Source: a virus
DNA length: 64,000 nt
Virus record (IMG/VR): IMGVR_UViG_3300045118_000047
Span: 6,779 to 70,778 of that record
Reading direction: 5' to 3' (one strand)
Of the stretch, positions 793 through 63,080 are shown in pieces. Position 1 is the stretch's first letter; each line of letters begins with the position of its first letter. The position numbers and the translations under genes are program-made. The notes beneath the pieces are model-generated. The model was given only the letters and a program-made list of their open reading frames with translations, made no database searches and was not told the origin of the DNA.

Positions 793-1374
793 ATGAGCGG
801 AGATCAAGATTTCGACAAGGCCGACGCCGATGCTGGCGTGGCAGTAGCACTCCCGCCAGAGTCTCGCTCCGGGACGACAGCGTTGGCGGGGCGGTTGCCG
901 TCAGACATTATTGCCTACCGGAAAAGTCTCGTCGAGAAGTACCACGCAGGAGCGCCCAGCTTCATCGAGCGGTTGCGCCGTGCCGGAAAGTCCGACATGG
1001 AATCGCTCTATGTATCGTTGATGGATGAAGTCCTTGGGGAGACGGACCATCTCCTTGGAAACGAACTGATCGCCACGCAGAACGGAGAGCTTCGGGATGC
1101 TTCGGTCATATCGTTCAAACGGGCTGAAGTCTTGGAAAAGGCGCTCAGAGCCGTTCAGACAAAACAGCAGTTGAAGGGCAATGGGTTTGACGTTGATGCG
1201 CCTGAAATGATGGTGGTGTTTCGTTTCTTCTTGGCGAAGGTGAAGGAGACATTCGACAGGATCGGAGTGAATCCTGAGATACCGGATTTGTTCTTTCGCC
1301 GTTTTGGGGAAGTGACGGATAACTGGCAGAAAGAACTCCGGGAACGTCTTGACGTGCTGGGGACTCAGAGGTGA
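793..1374 (+). CDS. putative terminase small subunit / hypothetical protein
   Basis: 193-aa helical protein immediately upstream of the large terminase; positional inference only. Confidence 0.35.
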   Translation: MSGDQDFDKADADAGVAVALPPESRSGTTALAGRLPSDIIAYRKSLVEKYHAGAPSFIERLRRAGKSDMESLYVSLMDEVLGETDHLLGNELIATQNGELRDASVISFKRAEVLEKALRAVQTKQQLKGNGFDVDAPEMMVVFRFFLAKVKETFDRIGVNPEIPDLFFRRFGEVTDNWQKELRERLDVLGTQR

Positions 1375-1381
1375 AAAGCGA

Positions 1382-4300
1382 ATGCCGACAAACATTCTTG
1401 CTGAGATTTCCAAGGAGTTCATCTCCGAGAGCAAGACTATCGCCGATGTCGTCACCTTCGTCGAGTCGTCTTGGGGCTTGGGGATCAAGCTCCTTCCCGT
1501 GCAACGCTTCATTTTGAAGTGTTTATACGGGTTGCCGCTGGACAATGGACCTAAGACCATTGATGTCCCCGATGTCGTCAATGAGCACACGCTTTATCGT
1601 TTCAACGAAAAAGAGTTTTTGGCATGGCTCTATGCAGAAGGTCGCTGCAATACGGACGAGACTGAAGGACGCATCTTCCAAGAAATCATTCTTGCCATAG
1701 GTCGTCGTGGAACCAAGTGTCGTGATCGGAATGACCTAATAGCAACCACAGACGGCACACTATCCTTTGGTGAACTTCTTGGAAGACTCAAGGCTCGGCA
1801 ACGTATTGGGATTCAGACTTATGATCCAAACACGCTCACGGCTTCGGTGTCTTATGATTTGAAGGCCCAAGACAATCGGAGTGAATGTTTTGAACTGACG
1901 ACAGCACGGGGGATTTGTGAGACATCTTCTTGGAACCATCCGTATTTGATTTGGAGACCGGAATGGGAGAAGCCGGATTGGGTTGAGATGTGTAGGCTCA
2001 GGGCTGGTGATAAGATAGCGACATCTAAGCAGGTTGGTCTTTTTGGCCAAGGGGGAGTGGGGGTCAATAAGGCCGCTCTATTGGGTCATCTCCAAGGCGA
2101 TGGTGGGACTACTTGTTCTGTTGGATACACCACCAGTAGTCGGGTTATGCTTGCCGACCTTCGTCGGCTGATTTTGTGTGAGTTCCCTGAGTATGTGGTC
2201 AAGAAGAAGGGGAAATCTGCTTTTAGAATGGGATATGAAGTTGTCAAGGCATCTGGAAGGTTCAAACAAAATGGTAGTCAGAAGAACGAAGTGGGGGAGT
2301 GGCTGAAACGGGAGCATTGTTTTGGCAAGAAGGCTGTTGAAAAGGAAGTTCCTGCTTGTATTTTTCAGGGCAGTAAAGCGGAAGTAGCTGCCTTCTTGTC
2401 TCGCTTATTTGGGTGTGATGGACATGCTAGTGTTGAGAACATAGTTCCCAAAGATCATGGTGGGGTTCCTAAGTCGCATGTGGGATATTGTTCGGCTTCA
2501 AAAAAGATGATTGATGGCGTTAGACATCTTCTTTTGAAGTTCGGGATACATGGGTGTGTTTGTCCGATAAAAGCCGTATGTGATGGGAAGACTTTCAATG
2601 CTTGGACATTACGCATAGTCAGGTCAGACAGTTTGGAGAAATTCAGAAATCAGATAAACATATTCTCGAAAGAGGACGCTGTTGATAGGGTACTACAAGC
2701 ATCTCGTCTGAGAAGTTTGTCAAAGAGTGAGTTTGACTGTGTTCCTTCTGGTGTCTGGAATTACATTCGACGGGTAATGAAGGGTTCTTCGGCGAGATTG
2801 CGATGGCGATACGCTCCGAGTAAGTGGAAGGTGCGAGATTATGGTGAACATATCGGTGATGCTTTTCTCAGGGCTATTGGTTCGTCCGATGTGCTGTGGG
2901 ACGAAGTGGAGTCTGTGAGATGCGTCGGAATGCGTGATACGGTGGATGTAGAAGTAGGTGGGACGCATATTATCGGTGGAGATATTGTGTCACACAATTC
3001 CACATTGGCATCTTGTGTCTCTAACTACGAGATGTACAAGCTGTTGAAGTATGGCGACCCGTCGAAGTATTACGGCTTCCCGTCGTTCACTACGCTGGCG
3101 ATTTTGAATGTGGCTCCTACGGACGAGCAGGCTGACATCGTCTTTGAGATGACGCAAAGTATGGCCATGCGTTGTCCTTTTATGAAGGATCGCTCGATCC
3201 ACCAGACGATGACCTATTTTGACCTTCAGACGGACCCGGACATGCAGGCCCACGGCAAACCAAGGGCGAGCTTGCTGTCGCTGGCTGGCGGATGTTCGTC
3301 CAACTCACTTCGTGGTCGTAATGCCATCGTGGTCATCATGGATGAGATGGCGCACTTCATCGACAACAACGGTCGGTTTTCTGGATCGGAAGTGTACAAG
3401 GCTCTTACGCCGTCTATCGCTTCGTTCCGTCGCGATGGTAAGGTGGTCTGTATTTCATCGCCTTACGCGAAGTTCGGAAAGTTCTACGAGCGTTGGGATG
3501 AGTCTTTCCGGGAGCAGGAAATCACACTGGCTTTCAAGATGTATAGCGCGATGGTGAATCCGACGATCCCGTCGGAAATCCTGCGGGCAGCTAGAAAGCG
3601 AGATCGTGTTGGGTTCATGTGCGAGTATGGTGGTGAGTTCTCCGACACGGTAACAGCGTGGATCGATGATGAAGCGGAGTTTCGTCGCTGTATTGTGAAC
3701 ACTCCTGCGCCTTCACGGGGAGTCCATGATGTGCAGTATTTCTTTGGAGTTGATTTGGGGTTCAAAAACGATGGGACTGGGCTTGCTATCGTCCATAGGG
3801 AGCCAGACAGCCGTATCATTCTGGATTACGCGAATGTTTGGTATTCTGGGTCGTCGGATGTCTGGGAGTTTAGCGACAGTATTTATCGGGCGTGCAACAA
3901 GTATGCTTCTTTGGAATTGTTGCGGATGGCGGACATTGTGGAAGAGATCAAGGAGCTTGTGAAGTGGTTCCCGCCGAAAGCGGGTGTATTCGACCAGCAT
4001 AACGGTTACGCCTTGGCGGAAGCCTTTCAGGTCGAGCGTATGTCTCAGTTTCAGATGGAGAATTTTTCAGACACTATAAATGATGAAGTGTATCGTTTGG
4101 TCAAGAGATTGTATGCTGAGCAATTTCTGACCTTGTTTGACCATCCTGTTTTGGTTAGGGAGATGCTGTCTCTTGAAGCGGAAAGGAAGTCCAGCAGCGT
4201 TACCGATGTAGAGCTTAGGAGCGAGAGCAGACATGGCAAGATGGTCGTCAGGCAACCCAATCGCCGTGGGGCGCATAACGACATCTCGGATGCTTTCTGT

Positions 4301-4498
4301 CGGGCGGTGTGGTTGTGCTACAATACCTTTAAGGAAACTCCGCCGCGAGTGGTGACAGGGGTTGGCGGAAGGGTCCCGTCATTGTTTGGAAAGACAGAGA
4401 CACAGGCTTCGTTTGTTGTGAAGCGAATGAAGCAGCACGGGGATCATCCGCGTGGCTTGTATCGGTCTCGGTATAAGGCGATGTTGTTGGGAAGGTAA
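1382..4498 (+). CDS. terL: terminase large subunit with intein
   Basis: Walker A GRRGTK|S (split by the intein), Walker B VIMDEMAH, motif III ISSP, RNase H-like nuclease motifs FGVDLG..D and HNDISDA. Confidence 0.92.
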   Translation: MPTNILAEISKEFISESKTIADVVTFVESSWGLGIKLLPVQRFILKCLYGLPLDNGPKTIDVPDVVNEHTLYRFNEKEFLAWLYAEGRCNTDETEGRIFQEIILAIGRRGTKCRDRNDLIATTDGTLSFGELLGRLKARQRIGIQTYDPNTLTASVSYDLKAQDNRSECFELTTARGICETSSWNHPYLIWRPEWEKPDWVEMCRLRAGDKIATSKQVGLFGQGGVGVNKAALLGHLQGDGGTTCSVGYTTSSRVMLADLRRLILCEFPEYVVKKKGKSAFRMGYEVVKASGRFKQNGSQKNEVGEWLKREHCFGKKAVEKEVPACIFQGSKAEVAAFLSRLFGCDGHASVENIVPKDHGGVPKSHVGYCSASKKMIDGVRHLLLKFGIHGCVCPIKAVCDGKTFNAWTLRIVRSDSLEKFRNQINIFSKEDAVDRVLQASRLRSLSKSEFDCVPSGVWNYIRRVMKGSSARLRWRYAPSKWKVRDYGEHIGDAFLRAIGSSDVLWDEVESVRCVGMRDTVDVEVGGTHIIGGDIVSHNSTLASCVSNYEMYKLLKYGDPSKYYGFPSFTTLAILNVAPTDEQADIVFEMTQSMAMRCPFMKDRSIHQTMTYFDLQTDPDMQAHGKPRASLLSLAGGCSSNSLRGRNAIVVIMDEMAHFIDNNGRFSGSEVYKALTPSIASFRRDGKVVCISSPYAKFGKFYERWDESFREQEITLAFKMYSAMVNPTIPSEILRAARKRDRVGFMCEYGGEFSDTVTAWIDDEAEFRRCIVNTPAPSRGVHDVQYFFGVDLGFKNDGTGLAIVHREPDSRIILDYANVWYSGSSDVWEFSDSIYRACNKYASLELLRMADIVEEIKELVKWFPPKAGVFDQHNGYALAEAFQVERMSQFQMENFSDTINDEVYRLVKRLYAEQFLTLFDHPVLVREMLSLEAERKSSSVTDVELRSESRHGKMVVRQPNRRGAHNDISDAFCRAVWLCYNTFKETPPRVVTGVGGRVPSLFGKTETQASFVVKRMKQHGDHPRGLYRSRYKAMLLGR
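1718..2998 (+). mobile_element. intein with LAGLIDADG homing endonuclease in the TerL Walker A motif (427 aa)
   Basis: Starts CRDRNDLIATTDG, block B SWNHPY, LAGLIDADG-like LLGHLQGDG and FLSRLFGCDG, ends VSHN|S. Confidence 0.92.
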
Positions 4499-5057: not shown

Positions 5058-8000
5058 ATGGCAAGGTCAAAAAAAGCATCTGGTGAACATTTTGACGGCG
5101 GCGTCAAGCGTCCCGGCGTTCAAACGGGTCCTGCGGACCCGGTACGGGCAAGGATTGCTCGCAGGGCGGTGGGGGCAGGCGGATTTGGGTTCGGCGGACA
5201 TGGGCGTGAGCGTGAAGCTGGAATGCTGATCGATACGTCTCAGGTTGCCGCTCCATACGCTACGGGATACAAGCTGGAAGCCTACCGGACTTCGTATGCT
5301 TACGGCCTGAGTGACCGCACAGGAGCTTACGACATCCCGACCTATTTCGTGATGATGAACGAGCAGAACGGCGGGATGATCTACTGGCCCGTCACACTGC
5401 ATGAGAAGTATTCGTGGTATCGGTACTGGGCGCGGTCGGATGCCTATATCGGCAGGGCTTTGGAGTTGCTGTCAGACCTGCCGATGTCGAAGCTCACCTT
5501 GAATATGCCCAAGATGCCCAAGGGCAAGAAGGGATTAGCTCAGGAGATTTTGGACTTCTTCAACTATCAGCTTGAAGTTATCAATGCCTTTGAGCTGTGC
5601 CAGAGCATTCTCTGGGAGTCCAACATGATCGGCAACTGCTTCAAGGGCGACACGATGATTGTTACATCGAAGGGTGTGTTGCCTATAGCGGAAGTCCGTG
5701 TTGGAGATGCTGTCCTTGATGCTTCTGGAAATTTTTCCAAGGTGACAAATATCGCCAGAAGGAGCGTGCAGGAAAGGCTGGTGTCGTTGCGGATTGCAAA
5801 GATGGCCGGTGTGGAGTTTATGCCTACAGCCGAACATCCTGTTTTTCTTCTCAAGGAAAACAGCAGAGAAGAAATGGTGAAGGCGGGTGATGTTCGTCGT
5901 GGAGATTGGATCGGAGTAGGAGCTACGGGAGAATCACGGGATGTGGATGTTGTTCCTTGGAAGGACGATCTTCTGGATCGGTATTTGCCGTCATTCTATA
6001 CAAAGATCGAAAAGGCGGTTCGAGGATCGCAGGTTGATATTCGGTGTGGATATGATGTCCCGACCGGATTGAGCGTGGATGCTGAAAACCTTCGAGATGC
6101 TATCTTGGCGTGGATTTCCGAATTGAAGGAGCCTACGACGGCTGATTGTTCGGAAGTTGCTAAAGCTATTGGCGTGGCTGATGCAGAACGAGTCAGATCG
6201 ATTGCCTATGCCATGCGAAAGAATGGAGAGATTAGGACCGAAAGGACCAGTAAGGGTGGGGTTGGAGGAAGCTCGCTGATTTGGTATCCGGGAGTATTTT
6301 CTGTGCCAACTGGTCATATTCGTAATATGGAGACCGTTTTTTCTCCTGTGGCAAGTCCGTCTATCTCTGTAGATGAGGACTTCTTATATCTTCTTGGTTA
6401 TTGGATGGGAGACGGATGGCTGTGGAAATCCAAGAACAAATATGCCAAAGAGTTCGAGGGATGGGACATTTGCGTATCTTCCAAGGCTGTTGATCTTTTC
6501 CTTCGTGTAGATGCGGCGGCAAGAAGTGTTTTTGGAGAGGACGCGGTTGATAATGAGCCGTTTATAGACGGTGATATGTCGCATGTGGTGGTTCGAGACC
6601 CACTTTTGGCGGCATGGTGGAACACCCAGTTTGGCAACGACTGTGAAAGCAAGAAGATTCCCGACTGGATTATGTCCTTGCCTGTGGAAAAAGCTATCTG
6701 GGTTTTGAGAGGAATGATTGATAGTGATGGGTATGTGACTAAGACAGAATCGGGTGGTTGTCAGGCAGGCATGGTTGGGACGAATAAGGCTTTGATGCTT
6801 CAGTTGTTCCACTTGTCTCTGCGTTGTGGCATCCCTGCTTCCTTTGGGAAAACGGATAAGCGTAGTGGTCAACTTCCAAACGGTCAACGGATAGAAACTC
6901 GTGAGGTTTATACCGTATCTGTTGGCGTTAGGGATTACTATGAAATGCTGGTTGACGGATGTTCTAAGGCTCAAAAGGCTGATTGGTCTTCAGAAGAATC
7001 GGTCAATATCGCCTTCAAAGAAGTAGATGGTCGTTTCTATTATAGGGTTGATGGCGTAGATCGTCCGTTCCATTCTGGTTTCGTTTACAATTTCGAGGTT
7101 GATGGAAGTCACACCTATTGTGCAAACGGAGTACGCACGCACAACTGCTACATCTTCCACGAGTGGGACGAGAAGAAGAAGATGTGGTCCAGAGCGGTCA
7201 TGCTTCCGCCGGAAGAAGTGTACGTTTTCCAATACCCATTCACGGATAACAAACGGGTGGAATACCGACCGCAGCGTTTGATTCAGCTCATCAAGAGTGC
7301 CGGGGATGCGGAAGCCAGCGAAGTTCCAAGGGGAGACTATGACCGCTCGGACATGAATCGAAAGATTGTTGAAGGAGTCCCCAAGGAGCTAAGGACAATG
7401 GTGCAGAGGGAAGGTTGTATCGTCATGGATACAGACCCGATGACGGGTTCGTTTGTGCATCATATTGCCCGCAGGCGGTCGCCGTACATGGATATTGGAG
7501 CTTCCGTGTTGGAGCGCGTATTGGTGCCGATGCTTCAGAAAGAGCATTACCGGTATACCCAGTTGAGCTTGGCTAGTCGCAATATGACGCCGAAGAACTT
7601 GATTTCGGCACCGGGTCTGATGCCGGAAGAGTTGGATGATTTGCGGACGCAGGTGGACCTGTCCTACATGGACCCGGAGTATTCGGTTATCACCAACTAT
7701 GAAATCCACTGGGAGCAGATTGGTCCCCAAGAGCGTTTCCTTGATTTCGGACGTGAATACGAACAGATCGAGAATCAGGTTTTCGCCGCGATGGGCGTGA
7801 CGCGAGAGCTTTTGACGGGAGAAGGTCAGTTCTCAGGGACCAAGATCACCGTCGAAATTCTAAACACGATGTTCCTGCTGACTCGCGAAGTTCTGAAGAA
7901 CTACATCGAGAAGCAGCTCTTCATCCCAATCTGCGAAGCCCACGGCTGGTATGAAGAAGACAAGAACGGGGTCAAGAAATACTACTGTCCGCAGATTGGC

Positions 8001-8513
8001 TTCAACCGCTTAACGATTCGCGACAATGCGGAAGTGTTTGATTCTCTGTTCCAGCTTTACCAGAAGGGCAGCTTGCCGGTGGACGTGATCTACGAGTTGT
8101 TCAACTTGAACCCCGAAGAGATGCACGCCAAGTTGTTGGAAGATGCTTTTACGGTCAAGGACGCGACCTTCAACCGACTGTTGGAAGAAGTCAACACGGA
8201 AGTTGGCAGGGCCATTCCGCAACAGACAGATGCCGTCGAGAAGGTGTCGAAGTATCTTGGTTTGAAGTTGGTCGGCAAGTCCGAAGAACAGGGTGGAGAC
8301 GGTATGGGCGGCGACTTCCAAGAAGGTATGGACGAACAGCAAGGCCAGCAAGAACAGCAGGGTCAGCAAGAACAGCAGGGTCAGGAGCAAGGCCAAGAAG
8401 GAGACCCTGAATCTATTGCCAAGACTGTTGCTGAAAAACTACCGGCGGATGCGTCTCCAGAAGACATCAAGGATGCCGTGGAAGAAGCATCAGAGGCAGG
8501 AGAGAAAGCATGA
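5058..8513 (+). CDS. portal protein with intein
   Basis: Position after terL; portal-like segments (DAYIGRALELLSDLPMS, LKNYIEKQLFIPIC); acidic and Q-rich C-terminus. Confidence 0.8.
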   Translation: MARSKKASGEHFDGGVKRPGVQTGPADPVRARIARRAVGAGGFGFGGHGREREAGMLIDTSQVAAPYATGYKLEAYRTSYAYGLSDRTGAYDIPTYFVMMNEQNGGMIYWPVTLHEKYSWYRYWARSDAYIGRALELLSDLPMSKLTLNMPKMPKGKKGLAQEILDFFNYQLEVINAFELCQSILWESNMIGNCFKGDTMIVTSKGVLPIAEVRVGDAVLDASGNFSKVTNIARRSVQERLVSLRIAKMAGVEFMPTAEHPVFLLKENSREEMVKAGDVRRGDWIGVGATGESRDVDVVPWKDDLLDRYLPSFYTKIEKAVRGSQVDIRCGYDVPTGLSVDAENLRDAILAWISELKEPTTADCSEVAKAIGVADAERVRSIAYAMRKNGEIRTERTSKGGVGGSSLIWYPGVFSVPTGHIRNMETVFSPVASPSISVDEDFLYLLGYWMGDGWLWKSKNKYAKEFEGWDICVSSKAVDLFLRVDAAARSVFGEDAVDNEPFIDGDMSHVVVRDPLLAAWWNTQFGNDCESKKIPDWIMSLPVEKAIWVLRGMIDSDGYVTKTESGGCQAGMVGTNKALMLQLFHLSLRCGIPASFGKTDKRSGQLPNGQRIETREVYTVSVGVRDYYEMLVDGCSKAQKADWSSEESVNIAFKEVDGRFYYRVDGVDRPFHSGFVYNFEVDGSHTYCANGVRTHNCYIFHEWDEKKKMWSRAVMLPPEEVYVFQYPFTDNKRVEYRPQRLIQLIKSAGDAEASEVPRGDYDRSDMNRKIVEGVPKELRTMVQREGCIVMDTDPMTGSFVHHIARRRSPYMDIGASVLERVLVPMLQKEHYRYTQLSLASRNMTPKNLISAPGLMPEELDDLRTQVDLSYMDPEYSVITNYEIHWEQIGPQERFLDFGREYEQIENQVFAAMGVTRELLTGEGQFSGTKITVEILNTMFLLTREVLKNYIEKQLFIPICEAHGWYEEDKNGVKKYYCPQIGFNRLTIRDNAEVFDSLFQLYQKGSLPVDVIYELFNLNPEEMHAKLLEDAFTVKDATFNRLLEEVNTEVGRAIPQQTDAVEKVSKYLGLKLVGKSEEQGGDGMGGDFQEGMDEQQGQQEQQGQQEQQGQEQGQEGDPESIAKTVAEKLPADASPEDIKDAVEEASEAGEKA
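5637..7145 (+). mobile_element. intein with LAGLIDADG endonuclease in portal (503 aa)
   Basis: Starts CFKGDTMIV, block B TAEHPV, LLGYWMGDG and LRGMIDSDG, ends VYNFEV...THN|C. Confidence 0.92.
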
Positions 8514-20625: not shown

Positions 20626-22740
20626 ATGGAACGCAGATGCACATCTGATGCTTGTCTCGCACACGCGGGCGCGAAGTCGGTCTCGTTGGACCTTCCGGTT
20701 GCGACCGTGCTGATGAATCCGCGCCAAGAGTGGGGCCGTTTGGCTTTTGGGGACGGACGGGTGCGAGTTGCGCGTGACATCAATGTGGACTGGAAATCGT
20801 ATACCCCGGATAACTATCTGTTTTCACACTGCACCATTGTCGCATCCGTTGCCACAGAAGACAATGGTTACTCTATTGTTCCGGCCTGCTCCGATTTGGT
20901 GAATAACAACGGCAATGCTTGGACCAATGAAGTATTGCTGGCGACGTTTAGAACCTTTGTTGGCGGAGAGAACTATCTTGAACACGTGCAGGTCCCGGAG
21001 CTGTCGAAGGGCAAGATTCTGGATGCTGTGCTTCGTCCGTTGACCTATCAGGACAAGGAAGGTCGGACGGCGGACATCTACTACTGCTTTACAGGGGATG
21101 CCAAAGTGTTGATGGGAGACGGGACAGAGAAGGACATTCAAGATGTTGTGGCTGGTGATCTTGTATTTTCTGGAGATGGTAATGTTCAGGAAGTTCTCGC
21201 CGTTTCGAGAAAGTATGCTTCCGACATTGTCAGAATGAAGATTCGTGGTGATTTAGATGTTGTCGGATGCACTACTGGGCATCGTATTTGGGCGAAAGAG
21301 AATATCGAAGACGAATGGGAGATCGTAGAGGCGGGATCAGTGGGAAAGGATTGGTGGGTTTTTCAACCTAAGCCAATCTGTCGTGGCGATATTGAAATCA
21401 GTAAGGACATGGCGTGGTTGGTTGGATTTTACGCTGCTGAAGGTTCTATCGTCGAGAGGGCGGATAAGGATGGGATCAGGCATCCCAAGGTAACACAGTT
21501 CACCTGTCACCAAGACGAAGAGGCGGTCGTTCGACTGGCTATAGATATAGTCTTGAGTGAGATTGGACCATACAAGGTTCCATTTTTCACTCAGAGATAC
21601 TCTGGTGAAAAGTTGATGAGGGGTATTAGAGGAAGTGTTGATAGTCGAAAGACTTCCGAGTTCGGAGTCAATATACGGGTCGGACACGAGACTCTTGCCG
21701 AGATCATGGTCTCTCTTTGTGGCAGGGGATCGACAACCAAGAAGTTTCATCCAGACATTCTGACGGGATGGAATGATGAGGCGAAGTTGGGTTTTCTGGC
21801 GGGCTTGATCGATGGGGATGGATATGCAAGGAGAGATGTGGTTGGATTCAAGTCTTCCAGTAACGACATGGTGAGGGGTGTCGAGTTTTTGCTGGCATCT
21901 CTTGGCATGGCATATTCAACCACGGGAGACTGGCATAGTGGACCGTATAGCGGGTGTGCGGTCGTAGAACTCGATTGTCAGTCGAGTGATCGTCTTCGGA
22001 CTTATCTGCGAATCAAGAACACCTTTGATGTGTGGTCTGGTGAATTGGGGTTGAACAACAGAGCATCGATTGCGTGTGTGGGCGGGATCGCTCGCAGAGT
22101 TGCTTCTGTAGAGAAAGTTGCAGATACGGTTGAGGTTCCAGTTTACAACATCGAAGTTGCTTCGGATCACAGCTATATCGTTTCTGGAATCAAGGTGAAA
22201 AATTGCGACATCTTGGTTGCTACAAACCGGAAGTATAAGCGACTGGTGGGCAAGATCGCTTCGGGTGAACTCACAACGATGAGCATGGGTTGTTTGGCAG
22301 ACTGGGTAACTTGCTCTCGCTGTGGGGTAGTGCTTGGTGACAATCAGCCGAACTGTCACCACTTGGACAACGAACTACTGGCTCATTTCAGGGACAAGAA
22401 GGGCGTCGAGCGGGTTGTGGCTGAGTTGTGTGGCCGTTCGATTATGAAGGGCGGCAAGCGAGTAGGCGACGGCAAGAGCGTGCGCTTCATAGAAGCGTCA
22501 TGGGTTGAGAAACCGGCGTTCTATGGCGCGGTTTTGAATCACTACGTGAGCGAGATGCCGGTGGAAGCGGCAAGGATTCTTGAGTTCCCGACAGATCGGC
22601 TACAGCTTGCCGTGGAAGACATCTTCAAGCTGCGTGTGGCTGACAAGGCGGGAATGATGGTGTTGCGAGTGGCGCAGGCTGAAATCGCCCGTCGGATGGC
22701 TTTTGAGCGTGTGGGGAGAATCGCAAGGAGATTGATATGA
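20626..22740 (+). CDS. prohead (capsid maturation) protease with intein
   Basis: NNNGNAW, ENYLEH, KGKILDA, TTMSMGC...CSRCG...CHHL, FIEASWVEKPAF; upstream of scaffold and capsid genes. Confidence 0.78.
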   Translation: MERRCTSDACLAHAGAKSVSLDLPVATVLMNPRQEWGRLAFGDGRVRVARDINVDWKSYTPDNYLFSHCTIVASVATEDNGYSIVPACSDLVNNNGNAWTNEVLLATFRTFVGGENYLEHVQVPELSKGKILDAVLRPLTYQDKEGRTADIYYCFTGDAKVLMGDGTEKDIQDVVAGDLVFSGDGNVQEVLAVSRKYASDIVRMKIRGDLDVVGCTTGHRIWAKENIEDEWEIVEAGSVGKDWWVFQPKPICRGDIEISKDMAWLVGFYAAEGSIVERADKDGIRHPKVTQFTCHQDEEAVVRLAIDIVLSEIGPYKVPFFTQRYSGEKLMRGIRGSVDSRKTSEFGVNIRVGHETLAEIMVSLCGRGSTTKKFHPDILTGWNDEAKLGFLAGLIDGDGYARRDVVGFKSSSNDMVRGVEFLLASLGMAYSTTGDWHSGPYSGCAVVELDCQSSDRLRTYLRIKNTFDVWSGELGLNNRASIACVGGIARRVASVEKVADTVEVPVYNIEVASDHSYIVSGIKVKNCDILVATNRKYKRLVGKIASGELTTMSMGCLADWVTCSRCGVVLGDNQPNCHHLDNELLAHFRDKKGVERVVAELCGRSIMKGGKRVGDGKSVRFIEASWVEKPAFYGAVLNHYVSEMPVEAARILEFPTDRLQLAVEDIFKLRVADKAGMMVLRVAQAEIARRMAFERVGRIARRLI
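21085..22203 (+). mobile_element. intein with LAGLIDADG endonuclease in the prohead protease (373 aa)
   Basis: Starts CFTGDAKVLM, TTGHRIW, LVGFYAAEG and FLAGLIDGDG, VYNIEVASDHSY, ends KVKN|C. Confidence 0.9.
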
Positions 22741-43929: not shown

Positions 43930-44451
43930 ATGAGTCAAACAAGACAGCAGCGGAAGCAGCAGCAAAAGCGCGTCAATCGCCAGAAGAAGATCAGAAAGCT
44001 CCACAACATCCAGCGCAACTTGGCCGAGCAAAGATTTCGTCTGGATGTCGAGCTGAATGGAGAGTGGCGGATTGGGGTCAAGCATTGGCGTCACATCAGC
44101 TTGATCGAGAAGCACCGTGACGAAACGGAGCGGCTGCGCAGGGCTGGTCAGGAGATTGTTGCCGGTCGGGTGGTGGACCTGATGACCGGAAAGATTATCT
44201 TGAAGATCGAAGCATCGAAGCCGAAGGGCGCGGCTCCTGATAAGATCGCGGATGGCGTTCGGGCGGCGGATTTCAGCGCGAACATCGGAGAAGGCGAAGG
44301 TCAGCAAGTTGGAAGCAAGGGACCTGAGCCGGTAAACTCGGAAGAACAGCAGAGCCAAGGACCTGCCGGGATCGTGGAGTCGGAGCAGAAGCCGGAAGGT
44401 CCGAAGGGGCCAGTGCAAAAGTTCTTCCGTATTCTGGGTGGTCGTCGGTAA
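43930..44451 (+). CDS. basic protein with Arg/Gln/Lys-rich N-terminus, putative RNA-binding
   Basis: MSQTRQQRKQQQKRVNRQKKIRK; the only convincing ORF inside the RNA island. Confidence 0.6.
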   Translation: MSQTRQQRKQQQKRVNRQKKIRKLHNIQRNLAEQRFRLDVELNGEWRIGVKHWRHISLIEKHRDETERLRRAGQEIVAGRVVDLMTGKIILKIEASKPKGAAPDKIADGVRAADFSANIGEGEGQQVGSKGPEPVNSEEQQSQGPAGIVESEQKPEGPKGPVQKFFRILGGRR

Positions 44452-44453
44452 TG
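44427..44453 (+). promoter_or_regulatory. CCGTAT-N15-GTAATG promoter
   Basis: One mismatch to the motif; upstream of RNA B. Confidence 0.6.
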
Positions 44454-44557
44454 TGGTTTTGACCGGGCGATGTGAAAAGCAAGCCGAGTCATTCCCTTAG
44501 CGGGGAAGAAGACAGGGGAAGCGTAGCGTCGGAGAGTGGGTTAGCGCCCATCCCGGT

Positions 44558-44569
44558 TGTTCTTTGAAA
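44558..44569 (+). promoter_or_regulatory. boxA-like antitermination element
   Basis: TGTTCTTTGAAA directly before RNA B. Confidence 0.65.
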
Positions 44570-44570
44570 T

Positions 44571-44854
44571 GAAAAGTCTGTAAAGTAGCTCGTCCATCCG
44601 ACTGACGACGTGTCGGACAGCGGGTGAAAATCAGGAACGGAAAGAAAGCCGTTCACGGTAGGCCGGAGTGGTAACACGCTTCGGCGGACATCCTGCCGTC
44701 AATAGTAGGATGCTGCTGCTCCCGTCCGAAAGGATCAGGAGAGACACGGGGCTGACATCGGGTAACACCTAGATGGCACAGGCTCGTAGGCCAAGACGGA
44801 ATACCGAAAGGTATGCCTGCCCGATGAAAGAAAGGACAGACCGACAGACTTTTC
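44571..44854 (+). ncRNA. unassigned structured RNA B
   Basis: 11-bp closing helix GAAAAGTCTGT/ACAGACTTTTC; GAAA and GTAACA-capped hairpins; no + strand ORF. Confidence 0.7.
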
Positions 44855-44855
44855 T

Positions 44856-44882
44856 CCATATCGCCGGAGACATCTGGTAATG
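44856..44882 (+). promoter_or_regulatory. CCATAT-N15-GTAATG promoter
   Basis: Exact motif upstream of the GAC-mimic RNA. Confidence 0.75.
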
Positions 44883-44888
44883 TGGGTG

Positions 44889-44900
44889 TGTTCTTTGACA
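44889..44900 (+). promoter_or_regulatory. boxA-like element
   Basis: TGTTCTTTGACA. Confidence 0.7.
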
Positions 44901-45305
44901 GAATAGGCAGGGGAATGTTGGCTTAGAAGCAGCCAGATAGAAATATCAGTTTTCTCTTGCTGGCGTGATTGCCATAGAATACAAGGGGGAACTCATCTAA
45001 GGAGTGAATCGCTGAGCATTGCTCCGTGAGTGTCATGGGGAAACCTGACTACTCGGAGTAACGCAATAGGGATTGGGCAGGCCGGACGGAACCGGATGTC
45101 TGGACATACGTTGGGTGAAAACCCAACTAGCACCCTTCTCGCAAGGAAGGAGAGGACGCCAGAGTGTACTGCCCTATTGTGCGGCAAAGGAGGTTGCGGC
45201 TCCCGTGTGGGTGAATAGTCTTTCGTGTGGTAGAAGCATAACCCGCAAGGCCATACTCAATCGCATGGTGGATTCTTTGGCGTAATAGCACACCTTTGCT
45301 TGTTC
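44901..45305 (+). ncRNA. structured RNA containing a split 23S rRNA GTPase-associated-centre (H43/H44, uL11-binding) domain
   Basis: 13-bp closing helix; blocks ATGTTGGCTTAGAAGCAGCCA, CATCTAAGGAGTG and GCGTAATAGCACAC in rRNA order. Confidence 0.8.
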
Positions 45306-45308
45306 TGT

Positions 45309-45320
45309 TGTTCTTTGACA
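45309..45320 (+). promoter_or_regulatory. boxA-like element
   Basis: TGTTCTTTGACA. Confidence 0.7.
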
Positions 45321-45325
45321 TTTTG

Positions 45326-45792
45326 ACTGGCAGCGGTACGGCACTAGGAACGTACTTGCGCATTAAAGTCCCAGTGCGCGACAATAGCCACGGTAGGGTT
45401 AGAAGCCCGATGTGGTCGCCGTTGAAAACAACGGCAGCGTGAGTCTGAGACCGTAAAGACGGTGAGTTCAACGCGAACCTGACGAGCTTCGTCTGCCTTT
45501 CCAGACTACGGTCATATACATGCCCCCGCAAAGGAGCTAACGGGGTCCCGTAAAGGACGCCGGGACGATGGCCGCAAGTGGGAAGGAGAAACAGACGAGT
45601 GGCGGGGAGAGTGGCGACAAGGCATTCCTTCAGGCTGGGCGCATTAAAAATTCCGTGGGCACGGATATATGCCTTGGGCAAAAATTGTTTCTGCTGTTTG
45701 ATCCCGAAACGTAGAAGCAGTCAGTAGTGGCGAGCGAACACTGTGGAGAATCGGGGTAGGCAAGTGTGTCGGTGAGAATCCGGCCTGCCAGT
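45326..45792 (+). ncRNA. unassigned structured RNA C with a 23S H13-like module
   Basis: Closing helix ACTGGCAG/CTGCCAGT; CAGT-C-AGTAGTGGCGAGCGAA-C-ACTG at 45718-45743. Confidence 0.7.
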
Positions 45793-45874
45793 TTTCGTCC
45801 AGATGATGTGACTTGCGGCGCACAAGGGTCCTGTGGTAGAGTGTTCTGGACCATTGCACCGTAAACTTTTTGAT

Positions 45875-45951
45875 CGCGGGAGGGAAGGCCGTGGTGGTCT
45901 CGTGGGGTTCATAACCCTATAAGTCGGGTTCGAGTCCCGGTCCCGCTACCA
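45875..45951 (+). tRNA. tRNA-Met(CAT), initiator-like with atypical D arm
   Basis: Acceptor CGCGGGA/TCCCGCT-A-CCA, anticodon arm TGGGG-TTCATAA-CCCTA, T loop TTCGAGT. Confidence 0.85.
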
Positions 45952-46081
45952 ATTTGAAGATGCGTTCGCCTGTCGCACGGGCCTGTGATGGGTCGTCAAA
46001 CAAGGCATGTCGAGCGTGAGACATGTCATCAGTGAATGGGGAAGGCGCATCTCGCAGAAGACGTGGAGCAGGAAATCGATT

Positions 46082-46462
46082 ACCGGCAAACCTGCTCTTC
46101 GTAATGCGGCAAGGCGGTTCTAAGCCCGCCTGTGGGCAAGCGTACTGTTGGGCCGGAAGGCAGGCATGTCGTCGGAACTCAGCAGATGGTAGAATAGGCC
46201 GCTAATAGCTCACGAAGGTTCGGTCAACGCCACGACGAAGGCGCTAGTCATAAGGTTGGCGGTAGCCGGGCTGCTTGGATGGTGGAGTCGGCGGTGGAAA
46301 CATCGCCCCCAAAAGAACCGCTTGCGGGAACCCTGAGCCGCAGTGATCTGTGGCTGGCTCTGAAGGGCTGCGGGAATGAACCTACCGCTACTACGCGCAG
46401 CGAAAGCTGCTAGGGACTTGTCGGCCCAAATGAACCAACCGGCAAGGGTCGGGTTTGCTGGT
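46082..46462 (+). ncRNA. unassigned structured RNA D
   Basis: 13-bp closing helix ACCGGCAAACCTG/CGGGTTTGCTGGT; nested TTGGGCCG/CGGCCCAA and GGCGGTAG/CTACCGCT helices; GNRA hairpins. Confidence 0.6.
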
Positions 46463-46509
46463 CTGGCTGTGAAATCTTCGCCCGGATGGAGCCAGACCAG
46501 CAACAATTT

Positions 46510-46536
46510 CCATATTGATGACAGACTGTGGTAATG
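46510..46536 (+). promoter_or_regulatory. CCATAT-N15-GTAATG promoter
   Basis: Exact motif upstream of the tmRNA. Confidence 0.75.
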
Positions 46537-46620
46537 TGGTCGCATGAACGGATAGATGGGCATCGGTATTCCGTTCATTGAAGCGGGTTGCCTAGCCGCC
46601 GAAAGGTAGGAGCGATGTCT

Positions 46621-46632
46621 TGTTCTTTGACA
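46621..46632 (+). promoter_or_regulatory. boxA-like element
   Basis: TGTTCTTTGACA, one base before the tmRNA 5' end. Confidence 0.7.
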
Positions 46633-46633
46633 T

Positions 46634-47465
46634 GGGCGCGATACGGTTTCGACGGGTGAAGTTGAAATCGAGCGACACGCCGAGTAATGTCTGGTTGGAC
46701 TCGTTAATCTATCCCAGACGACAACACAAACGCCAAGAGAACTCTTGGTAAGGTGATTCGCGGTGTCTTCGGTGCTGCTGATGAAGCGGTGCCGATGCTC
46801 GCGGCTGCGTAAGCAGCCCACCGTCACGGTGTAAGACTACGTGAACCGCCGTGGCTCAAAGCACGTGGTTGACAGCTTGGAAAGACAGCGATACCGGAGC
46901 TGGTCATTCCGGGGAAGGATGGACCAAAGTTGCCGGTTGACAACCGGATAGACCAAGCCCGTGGTCGAGAATATCGGGCGAAGCGTGTGTATGTTCGGCG
47001 TAGACTCATTCGGACGGGAGTTCAATCCAAAGGTTGCCTTGCTTGGCGACAAGCAAGGAAAAGAGTGCTCAAACGGTGAACGCTAAATCCGTAAGGATAT
47101 GCCAACGCCGTCGAGTGGGCTGGAAACAGCGAAGCTCGCTAGAGACTTATAGGCACCTTCAACCAAAGCTGGTTATGGTGTACTAGGATGGAAGAATCTT
47201 TCTCGAATCTGAGTTTGGCTTCGCGCATGGCGGCGGTGTATTTCCCGTTCCGTGGAGTAACCTTGTGGTAAACATGGGCGAGAAGGAACGCCGAGTCAGG
47301 AAGATCGTTCCTTCGCCATCGATGATGCCGGTCAGATAACCGAGATCGAATTTTTTCATAAATGCACTCCTTCTGGATGTAGGTTATACCTACAGCATGT
47401 CCAGAAGAAGGAATAGTCCAGACCATTACGAAAGTAAAGGATAATCTGTCTCCCCGCGTCCACCA
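46634..47465 (+). ncRNA. ssrA: tmRNA interrupted by a group I intron; exons 46634-47026 and 47449-47465
   Basis: 5' GGGCGCGATACGGTTTCGAC; acceptor GGGCGCG/CGCGTCC-ACCA with G3:U; tag ORF 46732-46812 AKRTLGKVIRGVFGAADEAVPMLAAA*; spliced T arm GGGAG-TTCAATT-CTCCC. Confidence 0.92.
47027..47448 (+). mobile_element. group I intron (422 nt) in the tmRNA T loop; no endonuclease ORF
   Basis: P1 CAAT/GTTG with U:G at the splice site; R-like TAGAGACTTA and S-like AAGGAATAGTCC; terminal G. Confidence 0.88.
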
Positions 47466-47487
47466 ATTTCAAGGTCACGAAAAATAG

Positions 47488-47517
47488 TTGCAAACAATTT
47501 CGTGGCGTGAGTATAGT
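47488..47517 (+). promoter_or_regulatory. sigma70-like promoter TTGCAA-N18-TATAGT
   Basis: Near-consensus hexamers upstream of RNA E and a tRNA. Confidence 0.55.
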
Positions 47518-47563
47518 GTAGTGAAAGTGAACGAAGTCAGGCTCACTTCAGTTCTGGGTTACT

Positions 47564-47829
47564 TCATAAAGCAACCAGAAGTCTCCGGCGGCGACAAGGA
47601 TCGCCGTTAGTAGGAGAATGACGGCCTGCAAAGACAGGATGGAGTTCAGGGAAGACTGGATGGCAGCATGGGAAGACATGCAAATGGCAGCTCGGAAAGA
47701 CGGCTTTCCCGGAGCGCATATCGGAGCTTGATGTAGTTCTGTGAGTGTTGAAGTATGGCACGCTTCAGTTTGGGGTTACTTCTGCCTTTCATAGAAATAC
47801 CCCAGACGGTCATCGGTGTCGGCTTTTGA
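47564..47829 (+). ncRNA. unassigned structured RNA E with four tandem NNAAGA-loop hairpins
   Basis: CCTG-CAAAGA-CAGG, TTCAG-GGAAGA-CTGGA, GCATG-GGAAGA-CATGC, GCTCG-GAAAGA-CGGC with ATGG(C)A linkers. Confidence 0.55.
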
Positions 47830-47830
47830 T

Positions 47831-47907
47831 TGCGGGGTGGAGCAGCCCGGTAGCTCGGCTGGCTCATAACCAGCAGGTCGTTGGTTCAAATCCAACTCCC
47901 GCAACCA
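47831..47907 (+). tRNA. tRNA-Met(CAT) with fMet-like body
   Basis: TGCGGGGTGGAGCAGCCCGGTAGCTCG...CTCATAA...GGTTCAAATCC...CGCAACCA. Confidence 0.92.
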
Positions 47908-47910
47908 CAG

Positions 47911-47947
47911 AAGGCCGGACGCCGAAAGGTGCCCGGCTTTTTGTTTT
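47911..47947 (+). terminator. intrinsic terminator
   Basis: GCCGG..GCC-GAAA-GGT..CCGGC hairpin plus T-tract. Confidence 0.75.
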
Positions 47948-47961
47948 GAGAAAGGAGTCGT

Positions 47962-48609
47962 ATGAAGCCAGTTTTGAAGCCGAACATTATGGTCTCACAG
48001 GACGAAGTAGACTTGGTAATCGGAGAGCTTGACCGGGTACTCAGGCTGGGCCTGCCGGGAGACGTGGTAGAGTTCGGGTGTAATGTGGGGAATACGTCGG
48101 TGTTCTTACAGGATGCGTTGCAGCGGAATGGAAGCCAGAAAAAGCTGGTGTGCATTGACTCGTTTCAGGGGTTCCCGGAGACGGAGTCGATTGACGAAGA
48201 CTGCTTCAAGAAGGGTGGTCTGGCAGTACAGCAGGCAGAGCTGCTGGGTCATTTCGACGAGTTTCAGCTTCCGCATCCCGTGGTCGTACAGTCGTGGATC
48301 GAAGAGCTTCGAGCGAAGGATTTGCCGGATGAGATTTGCTTCGCGTTTGTAGACTGTGACATCTACAAACCGGCAAAGTGGGCATTCGGATTGGCGTGGA
48401 TCAGGATGCCGGTAGGCGGGTCGGTTGTGTTTCACGACATCTGGGCGAAGGGAATCCAGCGGGCGATCTGGGAAGGTCGTCAAGGGATGTCGCGGGAAGA
48501 GATTGCATGTTGTCACAGGTCGTACATTGTCAGGAAGGTGGATTCGGTGCCCGTGGTGGGCAAAATTGGCGGCGATAATGCCGCACTTCAGGAAGGGGTG
48601 AGACAGTGA
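47962..48609 (+). CDS. TylF/MycF-family O-methyltransferase
   Basis: PGDVVEFGC..G, DSFQGFP, FAFVDCDIY, VVFHD. Confidence 0.85.
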   Translation: MKPVLKPNIMVSQDEVDLVIGELDRVLRLGLPGDVVEFGCNVGNTSVFLQDALQRNGSQKKLVCIDSFQGFPETESIDEDCFKKGGLAVQQAELLGHFDEFQLPHPVVVQSWIEELRAKDLPDEICFAFVDCDIYKPAKWAFGLAWIRMPVGGSVVFHDIWAKGIQRAIWEGRQGMSREEIACCHRSYIVRKVDSVPVVGKIGGDNAALQEGVRQ

Positions 48610-50363
48610 GTACGTTCAAGACGGTAGCACGGCAGAAGTCGGCGGCTGCATTGCAGCCGAGTCATGCTCCGAACGCATCGGTCAACCGGGCGGGCGGAGT
48701 GGCATTCGAGATTAGCGATCCATCACTGAAGCTCCTGACCATGACAGGCGGGGCTTTCTTTGCGGAGCCGAAGTTCTACAACGGCGACCAGTGTGTGCCG
48801 AAGCGTGGAACGGGCGGCAAGTTTGAAAAGCTGGCCGAGCGTCTGGAGATCGTGGGTGACAAGCTGAAGGGCGTTGTGTCTTGCGATGAGCTGGACGAGA
48901 CGGCTCGCGAAGTTGTGGCGACGGCTCTGGATGTGGCACGGGGCAATAACCCGGAAGACATTCTGGCGATTGCTAATTGGCTGCGTAACGAGATGAACAT
49001 CCGGCTGACGCCGCAGGTGTTGCTGGTGCTCGCTTCGCGGATGGACAACACGAAGTCTCTGGTGCGCAAGTACGCTCCGTGCATCGTGAAGCGCCCGGAC
49101 GAAGTGAAGAGCTGCCTGTTGATTCACCGGTTCTTCTTTGGGTTGAAGGACCTAAAGAACGGTCTGGCCAACGGTCTAGCCGACGCGCTGGGGAAGTTCG
49201 GGGAGCGGGGACTGATGAAGTACGACGATCCGGGATTCCCGACGTGGAAGGATGTGCTGTGCTGGCTGCCGCGTAAGGCGGGCTGGCCGCTGAAGGCGGA
49301 AGTGGCGCAGTATTTCATCACCGGGAAGATTGGTGATCCGGCGAAGGTTCCGGTCATCGCGGCCCGCAAGGAGCTGGTGAAGTGCAAGGCGTTTGACGCC
49401 GAAGCTCGCAAGCTGGCCCGTGCGTCAATGGTGAACTGGGAAGTTCTGCTTTCGCAGTTTGGCAACGACAAGCAGGCGGTCTGGGAGTTCTTGGTTCAGG
49501 AAGACTTGCTGGGTTACATGGCTATGCTGCGTAACCTTCGCAACATTCTGGAAGCCAAGGCTGGCCGGACGGTCATTCAGAAGGTGTCGGACAAGCTGTC
49601 CAACCACGATGAAGTCGTGAAGTCGAAGCAGCTCCCGTTCCGGTTCCTGTCGGCGCTGAAGGCGCTGGAGGGGATGCAGGGCGAGTTCGATCAGGCCGAC
49701 GTGTCTGAGCTGATGGCGGCTGTGGAGCTGGCTTCCAACGAAGCCTGTGCCAACATCCCGGTTCTGCCGGGGACAACAGTCATCTTCGCGGATGTGTCGC
49801 AGTCGATGCGCCGTAACAGGGTGTCGGACAAGTCAGAAGTCAACTGCGCGGATGCGGCAACGGTGCTGTGTGGTATCGTGGCCAAGGTCGCTGAGCGCCC
49901 GTATGTCGTGGCGTTCGGTTCGGATGTGGCTCCGGTGTTGTTCTCGAAGAACGACACGGTGCTGCGGATCGCCAAGCGGACGCTGGATGCGGACACTAAG
50001 GGGTGCTCAACCAACGGGCACAAGTGCGTGGAGTGGCTGATCCAGAAGAAGCTGGTGCCGGATCGTGTGGTCTTCCTGTCTGACATGCAGATGTGGAATG
50101 ACAACGATTCCAACGACGATCAGATTTGTCTTTCCGACGTGTGGGACAAGTACCTGAAGTCGGCGGCTGGCGCGAAGAATACGTGGGCGCACTGCGTCCA
50201 TGTCAACGGCTACGGCGACAACGTCGTCGAAGGGGACCGGATAAACATGGTTGCCGGGTTCTCGGAGAAGGTCGTGACGATGATGCTTCAGACGGAAGGC
50301 GTCATTGGCGGAAAGGCTCTGCCGACAGTGGAGCAGGTCCGTGAGAAGTGGACCGTGAAGTAA
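48606..50363 (+). CDS. TROVE-domain (Ro60-like) RNA-binding protein with vWA domain
   Basis: N.AGG.AF, RPDE, MAMLRNLRN, SKQLPFRFLSA, vWA DVSQSM and FLSDMQ, GFSEKV. Confidence 0.9.
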   Translation: MSTFKTVARQKSAAALQPSHAPNASVNRAGGVAFEISDPSLKLLTMTGGAFFAEPKFYNGDQCVPKRGTGGKFEKLAERLEIVGDKLKGVVSCDELDETAREVVATALDVARGNNPEDILAIANWLRNEMNIRLTPQVLLVLASRMDNTKSLVRKYAPCIVKRPDEVKSCLLIHRFFFGLKDLKNGLANGLADALGKFGERGLMKYDDPGFPTWKDVLCWLPRKAGWPLKAEVAQYFITGKIGDPAKVPVIAARKELVKCKAFDAEARKLARASMVNWEVLLSQFGNDKQAVWEFLVQEDLLGYMAMLRNLRNILEAKAGRTVIQKVSDKLSNHDEVVKSKQLPFRFLSALKALEGMQGEFDQADVSELMAAVELASNEACANIPVLPGTTVIFADVSQSMRRNRVSDKSEVNCADAATVLCGIVAKVAERPYVVAFGSDVAPVLFSKNDTVLRIAKRTLDADTKGCSTNGHKCVEWLIQKKLVPDRVVFLSDMQMWNDNDSNDDQICLSDVWDKYLKSAAGAKNTWAHCVHVNGYGDNVVEGDRINMVAGFSEKVVTMMLQTEGVIGGKALPTVEQVREKWTVK

Positions 50364-62296: not shown

Positions 62297-63080
62297 CACG
62301 ACAACCTTGCTGAGAGTGGCTGATCGGGCCGCTTATCAGTACGGACAGATCAACTCATTGATGGCGGCGATTTCGGCGGTAGGGTTGGGGTACTATTTCG
62401 AGACGGTGTCGGCGACGGAAGATGCGGATGTGGAGCTTCCGCTGGATGGTCCGTATTACAACGTCGATCAGGATTTCGTGACGGATGTGGTGGTTAAGAA
62501 CGGGATGCCGTTGGGAGACATTGTCTTCGCAATGGATAACCACTTCAACCGGTTGGACGGCAGCGGGGTTCCGTTGCAGGCGGGCGGCTGGGATGGGTAT
62601 CTGACCGATGAAGACGAGCGGGTGAGTTACTACTTCGCTCAGTTGTATTTCGCGGTCAAGGGATACTACATGCTGGCGAACAATGTGTTCTCTGAAAGCG
62701 CGGATCAGTTCGCAAGGTTACAGGTGAGCGCCGGGCCGACGCTGACGTTCACAGACGGGATTAGCTACGGAAACGGAAGCGATCTGAATCCGGCAAATGG
62801 GACGTACTACGCGGCCACGCAGTTGAAGGTGGTCGTAACGACGATGGGGGCCACGCAATTGGACGTGCGGTTGTCGGTCAAAGACATAAACAACAACCCG
62901 ACAACAATAGATGTCACGATTCCGGGCGGATCGACTCCCGGAACGGTAGTAGCGGTGGGTTCTACAACTGACCGGTTCCTAGACGTGACTGGGGCGATCT
63001 TTAAGCCCGCAGGATCAACAGGAACAGTCGGAGATGATATGAAGGTGATGAACTTGAAGGAAAGACAGATAGCGTTGTAG
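62283..63080 (+). CDS. putative virion structural protein
   Basis: RBS GAGG; T/G/V-rich C-terminal beta domain. Confidence 0.6.
   Translation: MPLIDTTTLLRVADRAAYQYGQINSLMAAISAVGLGYYFETVSATEDADVELPLDGPYYNVDQDFVTDVVVKNGMPLGDIVFAMDNHFNRLDGSGVPLQAGGWDGYLTDEDERVSYYFAQLYFAVKGYYMLANNVFSESADQFARLQVSAGPTLTFTDGISYGNGSDLNPANGTYYAATQLKVVVTTMGATQLDVRLSVKDINNNPTTIDVTIPGGSTPGTVVAVGSTTDRFLDVTGAIFKPAGSTGTVGDDMKVMNLKERQIAL

Follow-up and report, generated by a model that had tools for sequence, protein, structure and literature searches.

We report here on a short motif that recurs in the genome of a large tailed phage. The window, that is the whole 64-kb stretch of DNA that was analysed, covers bases 6779–70778 of a 70,778-base IMG/VR record with genome completeness estimated at ~43%. 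It contains a non-coding RNA cluster of about 3.5 kb (~44452–47960), placed between an open reading frame (ORF) ending at 44451 and the genes for a methyltransferase and a Ro60 protein (47962 onward). Four copies of the motif lie in this cluster, one directly before each of four RNAs, including a transfer-messenger RNA (tmRNA). Judged by its consensus the motif is a boxA-type element, and the phage probably borrows host ribosomal RNA (rRNA) transcription helpers to make and fold its RNAs. The four copies are as follows, L numbers denoting viral loci compared with the window.

44558–44569, + strand: boxA-like motif 1 (TGTTCTTTGAAA), exact match.
44889–44900, + strand: boxA-like motif 2 (TGTTCTTTGACA), exact match; invariant in the homologues of L006, L007 and L348.
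45309–45320, + strand: boxA-like motif 3 (TGTTCTTTGACA), exact match; TGCTCTTTGAAA stands before the RNA-3 homologue of L007 and GGTTCTTTGACA before that of L348.
46621–46632, + strand: boxA-like motif 4 (TGTTCTTTGACA), ending 1 nt before the first base of the tmRNA.

The RNAs that follow them are listed next.

44571–44853, + strand: RNA-1, without a known family; ends joined by an 11-bp helix, fold z-score −5.6.
44898–45308, + strand: RNA-2, which mimics the GTPase-associated centre (GAC) of 23S rRNA and contains a large insertion; 21/21 identity, fold z-score −5.0.
45325–45795, + strand: RNA-3, without a known family, with paired ends; fold z-score only −1.4.
46634–47465, + strand: tmRNA gene, interrupted; Rfam score 58.3 bits (threshold 47), first base G1 at 46634.

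All four elements that had been picked out in the original prediction, at 44558, 44889, 45309 and 46621, were found on the + strand. A count of TGTTCTTTGAMA over the entire record gave exactly four copies, four forward and none reverse, all inside the RNA cluster, while the motif read backwards gave none on either strand. The impression that the motif was absent elsewhere in the window is thus borne out for exact copies. When up to one mismatch is allowed the window holds five matches against 0.68 expected, a number reached in none of 100 shuffles; the fifth, with one mismatch, is at 62686, outside the cluster. The repeat is 12 nt long, or 15 nt in three of the four copies, with no longer duplication around it, and a chance origin of the repeats is excluded.

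The placement of the motifs, which had been described as 0–5 nt before the first helix of each RNA with the tmRNA included, also holds, with the refinement that at RNA-2 the helix takes in the end of the motif. The 3′ ends of the motifs accordingly range from 3 nt inside to 5 nt before the closing helix of the next RNA. In RNA-1 this helix pairs 44571–44581 with 44843–44853 and leaves motif 1 unpaired in the predicted fold; in RNA-2 it pairs 44898–44913 with 45293–45308 and includes the last 3 nt of motif 2. The ends of RNA-3 are joined by ACTGGCAG (45326–45333), which pairs with CTGCCAGT (45785–45792).

All four copies read G-T-T-C-T-T-T-G-A-[A/C]-A. The gamma-proteobacterial boxA consensus is given as GYTCTTTAANA (PMC5725501). 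The phage motif fits the boxA consensus, with a single departure from the gamma-proteobacterial form, at the A/G position. A G at this position also occurs in the Bacillus consensus (GAUCUUUGAAA type) and in the rRNA operon (rrn) leaders of four of the bacterial genomes considered below (G001–G004), and the G at position 9 of the phage motif is typical of non-enteric boxA. The rrn boxA of B. subtilis, AUGAUCUUUGAAA, has been shown to bind NusB, and that of E. coli is quoted as UGCUCUUUAACA (PMC13753749). E. coli rrnH carries TGCTCTTTAACA in its leader and TGCTCTTTAAAA in its spacer.

The motif is retained in related phages. Seven loci, representing five distinct phages, have a Ro60 that is 50–70% identical to that of the window, and five of the seven retain a tmRNA upstream of Ro60; L009 and L010 have no tmRNA at the Rfam threshold. 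Motif copies are present in L006 at 5803 and 6976 and in L007 at 3219, 3666 (TGCTCTTTGAAA) and 7100. RNA-2 homologues are found in L006, L007 and L348, those of the first two preceded by an exact TGTTCTTTGACA, and TGTTCTTTGATA stands 2–3 nt before the first base of the tmRNA in L006 and L007/L011. The flanks around these conserved junction motifs diverge throughout the relatives. In an alignment of four RNA-2 sequences the boxA columns are unpaired and form the sole invariant block of the 5′ flank. L348, a metagenome contig from a further relative, carries five motifs, all on a single strand, one directly before each RNA module: homologues of RNA-3 and of RNA-2 (the latter following a tRNA), an RNA of unknown kind, the tmRNA and one that resembles the RNA at 47520 of the window. 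The order of the modules in L348 differs from that in the window, so the motif travels with each module.

The arrangement is not confined to this group of phages. The search pattern was the motif core followed by a tmRNA 5′ end within 0–6 nt, with the complemented motif as control. The boxA–tmRNA junction is present in at least 118 viral contigs, compared with 27 for the control; the bacterial contigs that have it number at least 120 and span many phyla. Two bases 5′ of the core, at a position left free in the search, G stands at 83 of 99 distinct viral sites (background 0.20) and at 81 of 119 distinct bacterial sites (background 0.25). A −10-like hexamer peaks 6–7 nt before the conserved G at the viral sites (31 of 99); there the motif lies at about +1 of the pre-tmRNA.

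Five bacterial genomes with boxA beside ssrA, G001–G005, were examined after their rRNA and tmRNA genes had been located. In all five the 11-mer that lies 2–4 nt before ssrA equals, or is one base from, an rrn-linked copy of the same genome. These rrn-linked copies are positioned 66–221 nt upstream of 16S or 24–290 nt upstream of 23S. They occur in all three 16S leaders of G001, in leader and spacer of G003 and in the leader of G004; G002 has the identical 11-mer in four of four spacers, 24 nt before 23S, and G005 has it 290 nt before an unlinked 23S. The motif exceeds its control in each of the five genomes (18 versus 5 in G001, for example). On the minus strand of G001, at about 2886271–2890419, three boxA-like 11-mers are spaced ~2 kb apart, away from the rRNA and tmRNA genes.

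The boxA–tmRNA arrangement is nevertheless a minority one and lineage-restricted. Other phages with a tmRNA show little excess of additional boxA copies: the same strand has 119, the selected ones included, and the opposite strand 30, with 15 and 11 for the controls. The ssrA gene of E. coli has no clean boxA, which may explain why the arrangement has gone unnoticed; the literature searched yielded no paper that connects boxA with genes for tmRNA or with ssrA.

Consensus fit, conservation at the junctions and identity with rrn copies beside ssrA together make recruitment of NusB and S10 the most economical reading. With slightly better than even confidence we take the motifs to be rrn-type boxA elements that bind NusB–S10 and load an rrn-type complex, mainly to help each RNA close its terminal helix. 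On emerging in the nascent RNA, boxA would be bound by the host pair NusB–S10 (NusE), which with NusG, NusA and other rrn factors would convert RNA polymerase into an rrn-type elongation complex. Each boxA would sit directly 5′ of a strand whose pairing partner emerges 280–830 nt downstream. The main gain would be that the 5′ strand is held at the polymerase until the 3′ strand appears, such that the tmRNA, RNA-1, RNA-2 and RNA-3 close correctly, and a secondary gain might be that a ~3-kb untranslated transcript is protected against early termination. The boxA-bearing leader would be cut off afterwards, by RNase P in the case of the tmRNA.

A tethering model for the Nus complex is reported in the literature. 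Since there is one boxA per module, set against a strand of a long-range helix, folding or tethering fits better than plain read-through against Rho. The latter is an insufficient reason for the layout because a single boxA would do, as in L008, and because the transcript is G-rich and C-poor. The original prediction, that the phage routes its non-coding RNAs through the host rRNA transcription machinery, is partly supported, by comparative evidence (the consensus fit, the junction conservation and the rrn match beside bacterial ssrA), but needs amending in two respects. Firstly, boxA before a tmRNA is not an invention of this phage. Secondly, the emphasis shifts from antitermination to folding.

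Several observations weigh against NusB–S10 recruitment for folding. The motif core was found within 22 nt upstream in none of 105 distinct unselected phage tmRNA 5′ ends, and among 301 genomes spread evenly over the phylum of G001 the pattern occurs in four (three of them tmRNA-like), against three control matches. It is missing at all but one of 108 phage GAC-mimic RNAs. The RNase P RNA genes of the five bacteria were checked and none has the motif, which is thus not a general mark of stable RNAs. Amongst the relatives, the L005 copy, 9 nt before the tmRNA, has two mismatches, and L008 has one copy with one mismatch at the start of the cluster and none at the tmRNA. The last 3 nt of motif 2 are predicted to pair. 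Finally, processive antitermination needs only one boxA, and a G-rich, C-poor transcript is a poor substrate for Rho, which makes a need for antitermination doubtful.

The main rival, which we consider unlikely but deserving of attention, is that the motif is a processing signal, a single-stranded U-rich spacer cut by an RNase E-like or phage endonuclease at the module boundaries. It owes its standing to the junction position and to two neighbouring devices.

45875–45951, + strand: tRNA-like element with anticodon CAT; ARAGORN, Rfam tRNA 27.6 bits (under the threshold of 29).
46053–46129, + strand: Twister-P5 self-cleaving ribozyme, a separate device at another RNA junction; 38 bits (threshold 37.6).

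The motif coincides exactly with the module boundaries and is left single-stranded by the predicted folds, other junctions of the cluster hold the processing devices listed above (the twister ribozyme of L007 scores 48.6 bits), and in L348 one motif sits 8 nt after a tRNA 3′ end. What a cutting site would not lead one to expect is that conservation falls on the boxA positions, the G left free in the search among them, or that the bacterial rrn 11-mer should stand 24–290 nt from mature rRNA ends. All 105 sampled phage tmRNAs are without the motif, and tmRNA 5′ ends are made by RNase P regardless of the leader. In many phages, moreover, the motif is at about +1 of the transcript, with nothing upstream to remove.

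It is improbable, and more so than a processing signal, that the motif merely resembles boxA and is the site for a phage-encoded factor such as Ro60, an RNA chaperone or an antiterminator of the N type. For it speak the confinement of the motif to the RNA modules of this phage group, a genome of which about 43% is covered and 57% missing, and a gene for a candidate protein that adjoins the cluster.

48606–50363, + strand: Ro60 (TROVE) RNA-binding protein gene; Pfam TROVE 5.3e-21, PHROG 850 1.4e-32.

The motif also precedes ssrA, however, in bacteria without such a phage, where it equals the rrn boxA, and a scan of 76 ORFs in this ~43% complete genome brought up no protein resembling N or a Nus factor. 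The motif for Ro60 binding of Y RNA is reported as GNCGAAN0-1G, which differs from the phage motif (PMC4201824).

We regard as very improbable that TTGACA/TTGAAA within the motif serves as a promoter hexamer of the −35 type, TTGACA being the sigma-70 −35 consensus, or that the repeats are an artefact of chance or duplication: a −10 placed 17 bp downstream would start transcription inside the tmRNA and the terminal helices, the promoter scan finds no such site at any motif, canonical −35/−10 pairs in other phages lie upstream of the motif, and the shuffle and strand counts, with a repeat that ends within 12–15 nt, speak against the artefacts.

If the motifs act as rrn-type boxA elements that assist folding, their closest counterpart is the rrn boxA used by NusB, NusE, NusA and NusG together with SuhB. 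In both, a 12-nt motif that follows one consensus stands on what in the phage is the presumed transcribed strand, upstream of large untranslated RNAs closed by long-range helices; both have several copies per unit, one before each large RNA (leader and 16S–23S spacer in rrn operons). A small hairpin is described just before boxA in B. subtilis rrn leaders (PMC13753749), and at phage site 2 a predicted hairpin (44854–44886) likewise stops 3 nt before motif 2. The placement of one boxA per module against the 5′ strand of a long-range helix is the geometry of 16S and 23S leaders and agrees with a regulation of rRNA folding by the Nus complex, as proposed in PMC5725501. The phage system differs in being phage-encoded, in serving a tmRNA, an rRNA-fragment mimic and two RNAs without a known family, in having up to 4–5 copies within 2–3 kb, and in its spacing of 0–5 nt to the first helix or mature end, against 24–290 nt in the bacterial rrn operons checked.

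Co-option of boxA for transcripts other than rRNA is seen in the suhB 5′ untranslated region, arrays of clustered regularly interspaced short palindromic repeats (CRISPR) and ribosomal-protein genes; the suhB and CRISPR cases are mentioned in PMC13753749, and non-coding RNAs are placed outside the scope of their boxA survey by its authors (PMC5725501). These are cellular genes with a single boxA that acts in translation repression or against Rho, in contrast to the stable structured RNAs of the phage with one boxA per module. The boxA-like leader of cellular ssrA resembles that of the phage in ending 0–6 nt before the first base of the tmRNA, in at least 120 bacterial contigs, and differs in being a single copy confined to certain lineages.

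The nut sites of phage lambda, in which a phage boxA together with boxB and the N protein engages host Nus factors, offer another likeness, but their targets are mRNAs read through terminators. No conserved boxB-type hairpin follows the phage motifs in the predicted folds or the RNA-2 alignment, and an N-like protein is absent from the 76 ORFs scanned at ~43% completeness.

The RNAs that surround the motifs, the rRNA mimic above all, may be of equal or greater interest than the motif itself. RNA-2, the mimic of the GAC (helices 42–44), is identical at 21 of 21 bases to E. coli 23S 1057–1077 and has GGCGTAATAGCAC, resembling the 1095 loop, near its 3′ end. At least 119 viral contigs contain the helix-43 hairpin; 108 of its 109 distinct sites are not rRNA, and many of these hairpins sit just after tRNA genes. 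YGTAAYAGC follows 75–330 nt downstream at 62 of 113 hairpin sites (background 0.04 per 900 nt), and the 5′ and 3′ flanks pair at eight of eight positions in 27 of 57 sites, compared with 2.5% for mismatched partners. On these sequence patterns RNA-2 is a member of a large phage RNA family, which may act as a decoy for L11, the L10 stalk or factors that target this site. An exact-pattern search for further relatives of RNA-2 returned only two contigs that were already known, and the literature search found no paper on phage RNAs that mimic the GAC. A further mimic-related site is listed at 46147–46215, with viral loci L429–L546.

When metagenomes were scanned for boxA together with the GAC hairpin, 92 of 121 matches were real 23S rRNA, because in some uncultured taxa TTTCTTTGACA occurs naturally at a distance of 11 nt ahead of helix 43; only the 29 others are relevant. 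In metagenome loci such as L310–L324, TTTCTTTGACA inside 23S rRNA resembles boxA and gives false positives in boxA searches. The look-alike is probably a coincidence.

Rfam searches of RNA-1, RNA-2 and RNA-3 matched no family, even at E values up to 5–10. RNA-3 had been considered by eye as a possible RNase P RNA; this was rejected, since Rfam returned no match and the strands proposed for P4 fail to pair. A stretch of RNA-3 (45722–45748) agrees with E. coli 23S 240–266 at 22 of 27 bases (E = 0.17, weak) and may be a second piece of rRNA mimicry.

The Rfam match to the tmRNA spans 46642–47029 and is without the 3′ acceptor strand. The gene is interrupted after the T-loop (~47027) by about 422 nt (47028–47449) without a family match, and the missing T-stem and acceptor 3′ strand are at 47450–47465, with the 3′ strand plus CCA at 47455–47465. 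The insert encodes a 95-amino-acid ORF on the minus strand (47139–47426), which has no Pfam or PHROG match, and the insert itself has no group I intron match in Rfam. The tmRNAs of L006 and L007 are uninterrupted and score 107–117 bits. An intron or a mobile insertion might account for the split, or the tmRNA could consist of two pieces. The tag frame is unusually long, at 26 codons (AKRTLGKVIRGVFGAADEAVPMLAAA, 46732–46812), and a similarly long tag was read by eye in L006. A search with the tmRNA of the window against all loci of the study matched already known relatives only.

A second element, CCRTAT-N14-GGTAATGT, is also specific to the cluster, with three matches in the 64-kb window against 0.01 expected, all of them within the cluster.

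44427–44454, + strand: copy 1, kept in L005, L006 and L007.
44856–44883, + strand: copy 2, which folds as a hairpin.
46510–46537, + strand: copy 3, a pattern match.

T-rich runs precede the copies, and the outer pairs (CC/GG, UC/GA, UU/AA), compared by eye, covary in seven of nine copies and are broken in two. The element may act as an RNA hairpin or as a promoter reserved for the RNA genes.

At the end of the cluster a unit without boxA (47488–47907) comprises a promoter-like site, a further RNA and a tRNA.

47488–47517, + strand: sigma-70-type promoter-like site ahead of the further RNA and tRNA-Met; kept in L006 and L007.
47831–47907, + strand: tRNA-Met, a good match (ARAGORN/Rfam).

The further RNA, 47520–47830, adjoins Ro60. 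It has three copies of TGRCAGC..GNAAAGACRG, an element also found in the pseudoknot region of the tmRNA (46870–46900; families D1 and D2), and a 33-nt repeat of its own (D4). It might partner Ro60 in the manner of a Y RNA; the Y-RNA motif given above is not cleanly present.

The ORF content of the cluster is limited to one doubtful ORF on the minus strand, and the parts outside the tmRNA, twister and tRNA-type matches fold well and are without an Rfam family. Nearly all genes of the window are on the + strand, which is G-rich and C-poor with a GC skew of +0.15 to +0.24. A scan of 44452–47900 found no terminator-like site on this strand, which makes long transcripts plausible; promoter-like elements lie upstream of the motifs. 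The tailed-phage genes of the window include those for the terminase large subunit, portal protein, major head protein and head protease, and it also encodes a tRNA nucleotidyltransferase. Inteins with a LAGLIDADG homing endonuclease are present in the terminase large subunit, portal protein and head protease (1349–4498, 5058–8513 and 20626–22740). The same phage recurs in several DNA runs of lake-water metagenomes; contigs from four runs are near-identical, with five single-base differences, none of them within the boxA-like motifs. Matches of the window to cultured-phage DNA are restricted to tRNA-Met, and the Ro60 relatives in cultured phages are all below 60% identity, the best at ~29%.

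Even now boxA and the Nus factors are regarded chiefly as belonging to rRNA, the recognised extensions being lambda, suhB and CRISPR arrays. What is new here is that boxA would serve stable non-coding RNAs, that there is one boxA per RNA module, abutting the 5′ strand of each long-range closing helix, and that many phages and several bacterial lineages have the same arrangement ahead of their tmRNA genes. Such a layout is a prediction of the idea that Nus factors assist rRNA folding, and it makes that idea testable on small RNAs, such as a 360-nt tmRNA, instead of ribosomes. A wider and more tentative proposal, which we think possible but rather doubtful, is that boxA is a portable 'fold-me' tag for stable RNAs in general, rRNA being just one case, with a single copy directly 5′ of an RNA whose ends have to pair and NusB–S10 tethering the 5′ strand to RNA polymerase meanwhile. 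If this were true, some bacteria would use boxA for tmRNA, the phage lineage would mass-produce translation-related decoy or helper RNAs (tmRNA, the GAC mimic and others) module by module, and the Nus complex would chaperone non-coding RNA in general during transcription, a service exploited by phages. In the phage described here, a battery of translation-related RNAs appears to be equipped with expression signals of the host rRNA type.

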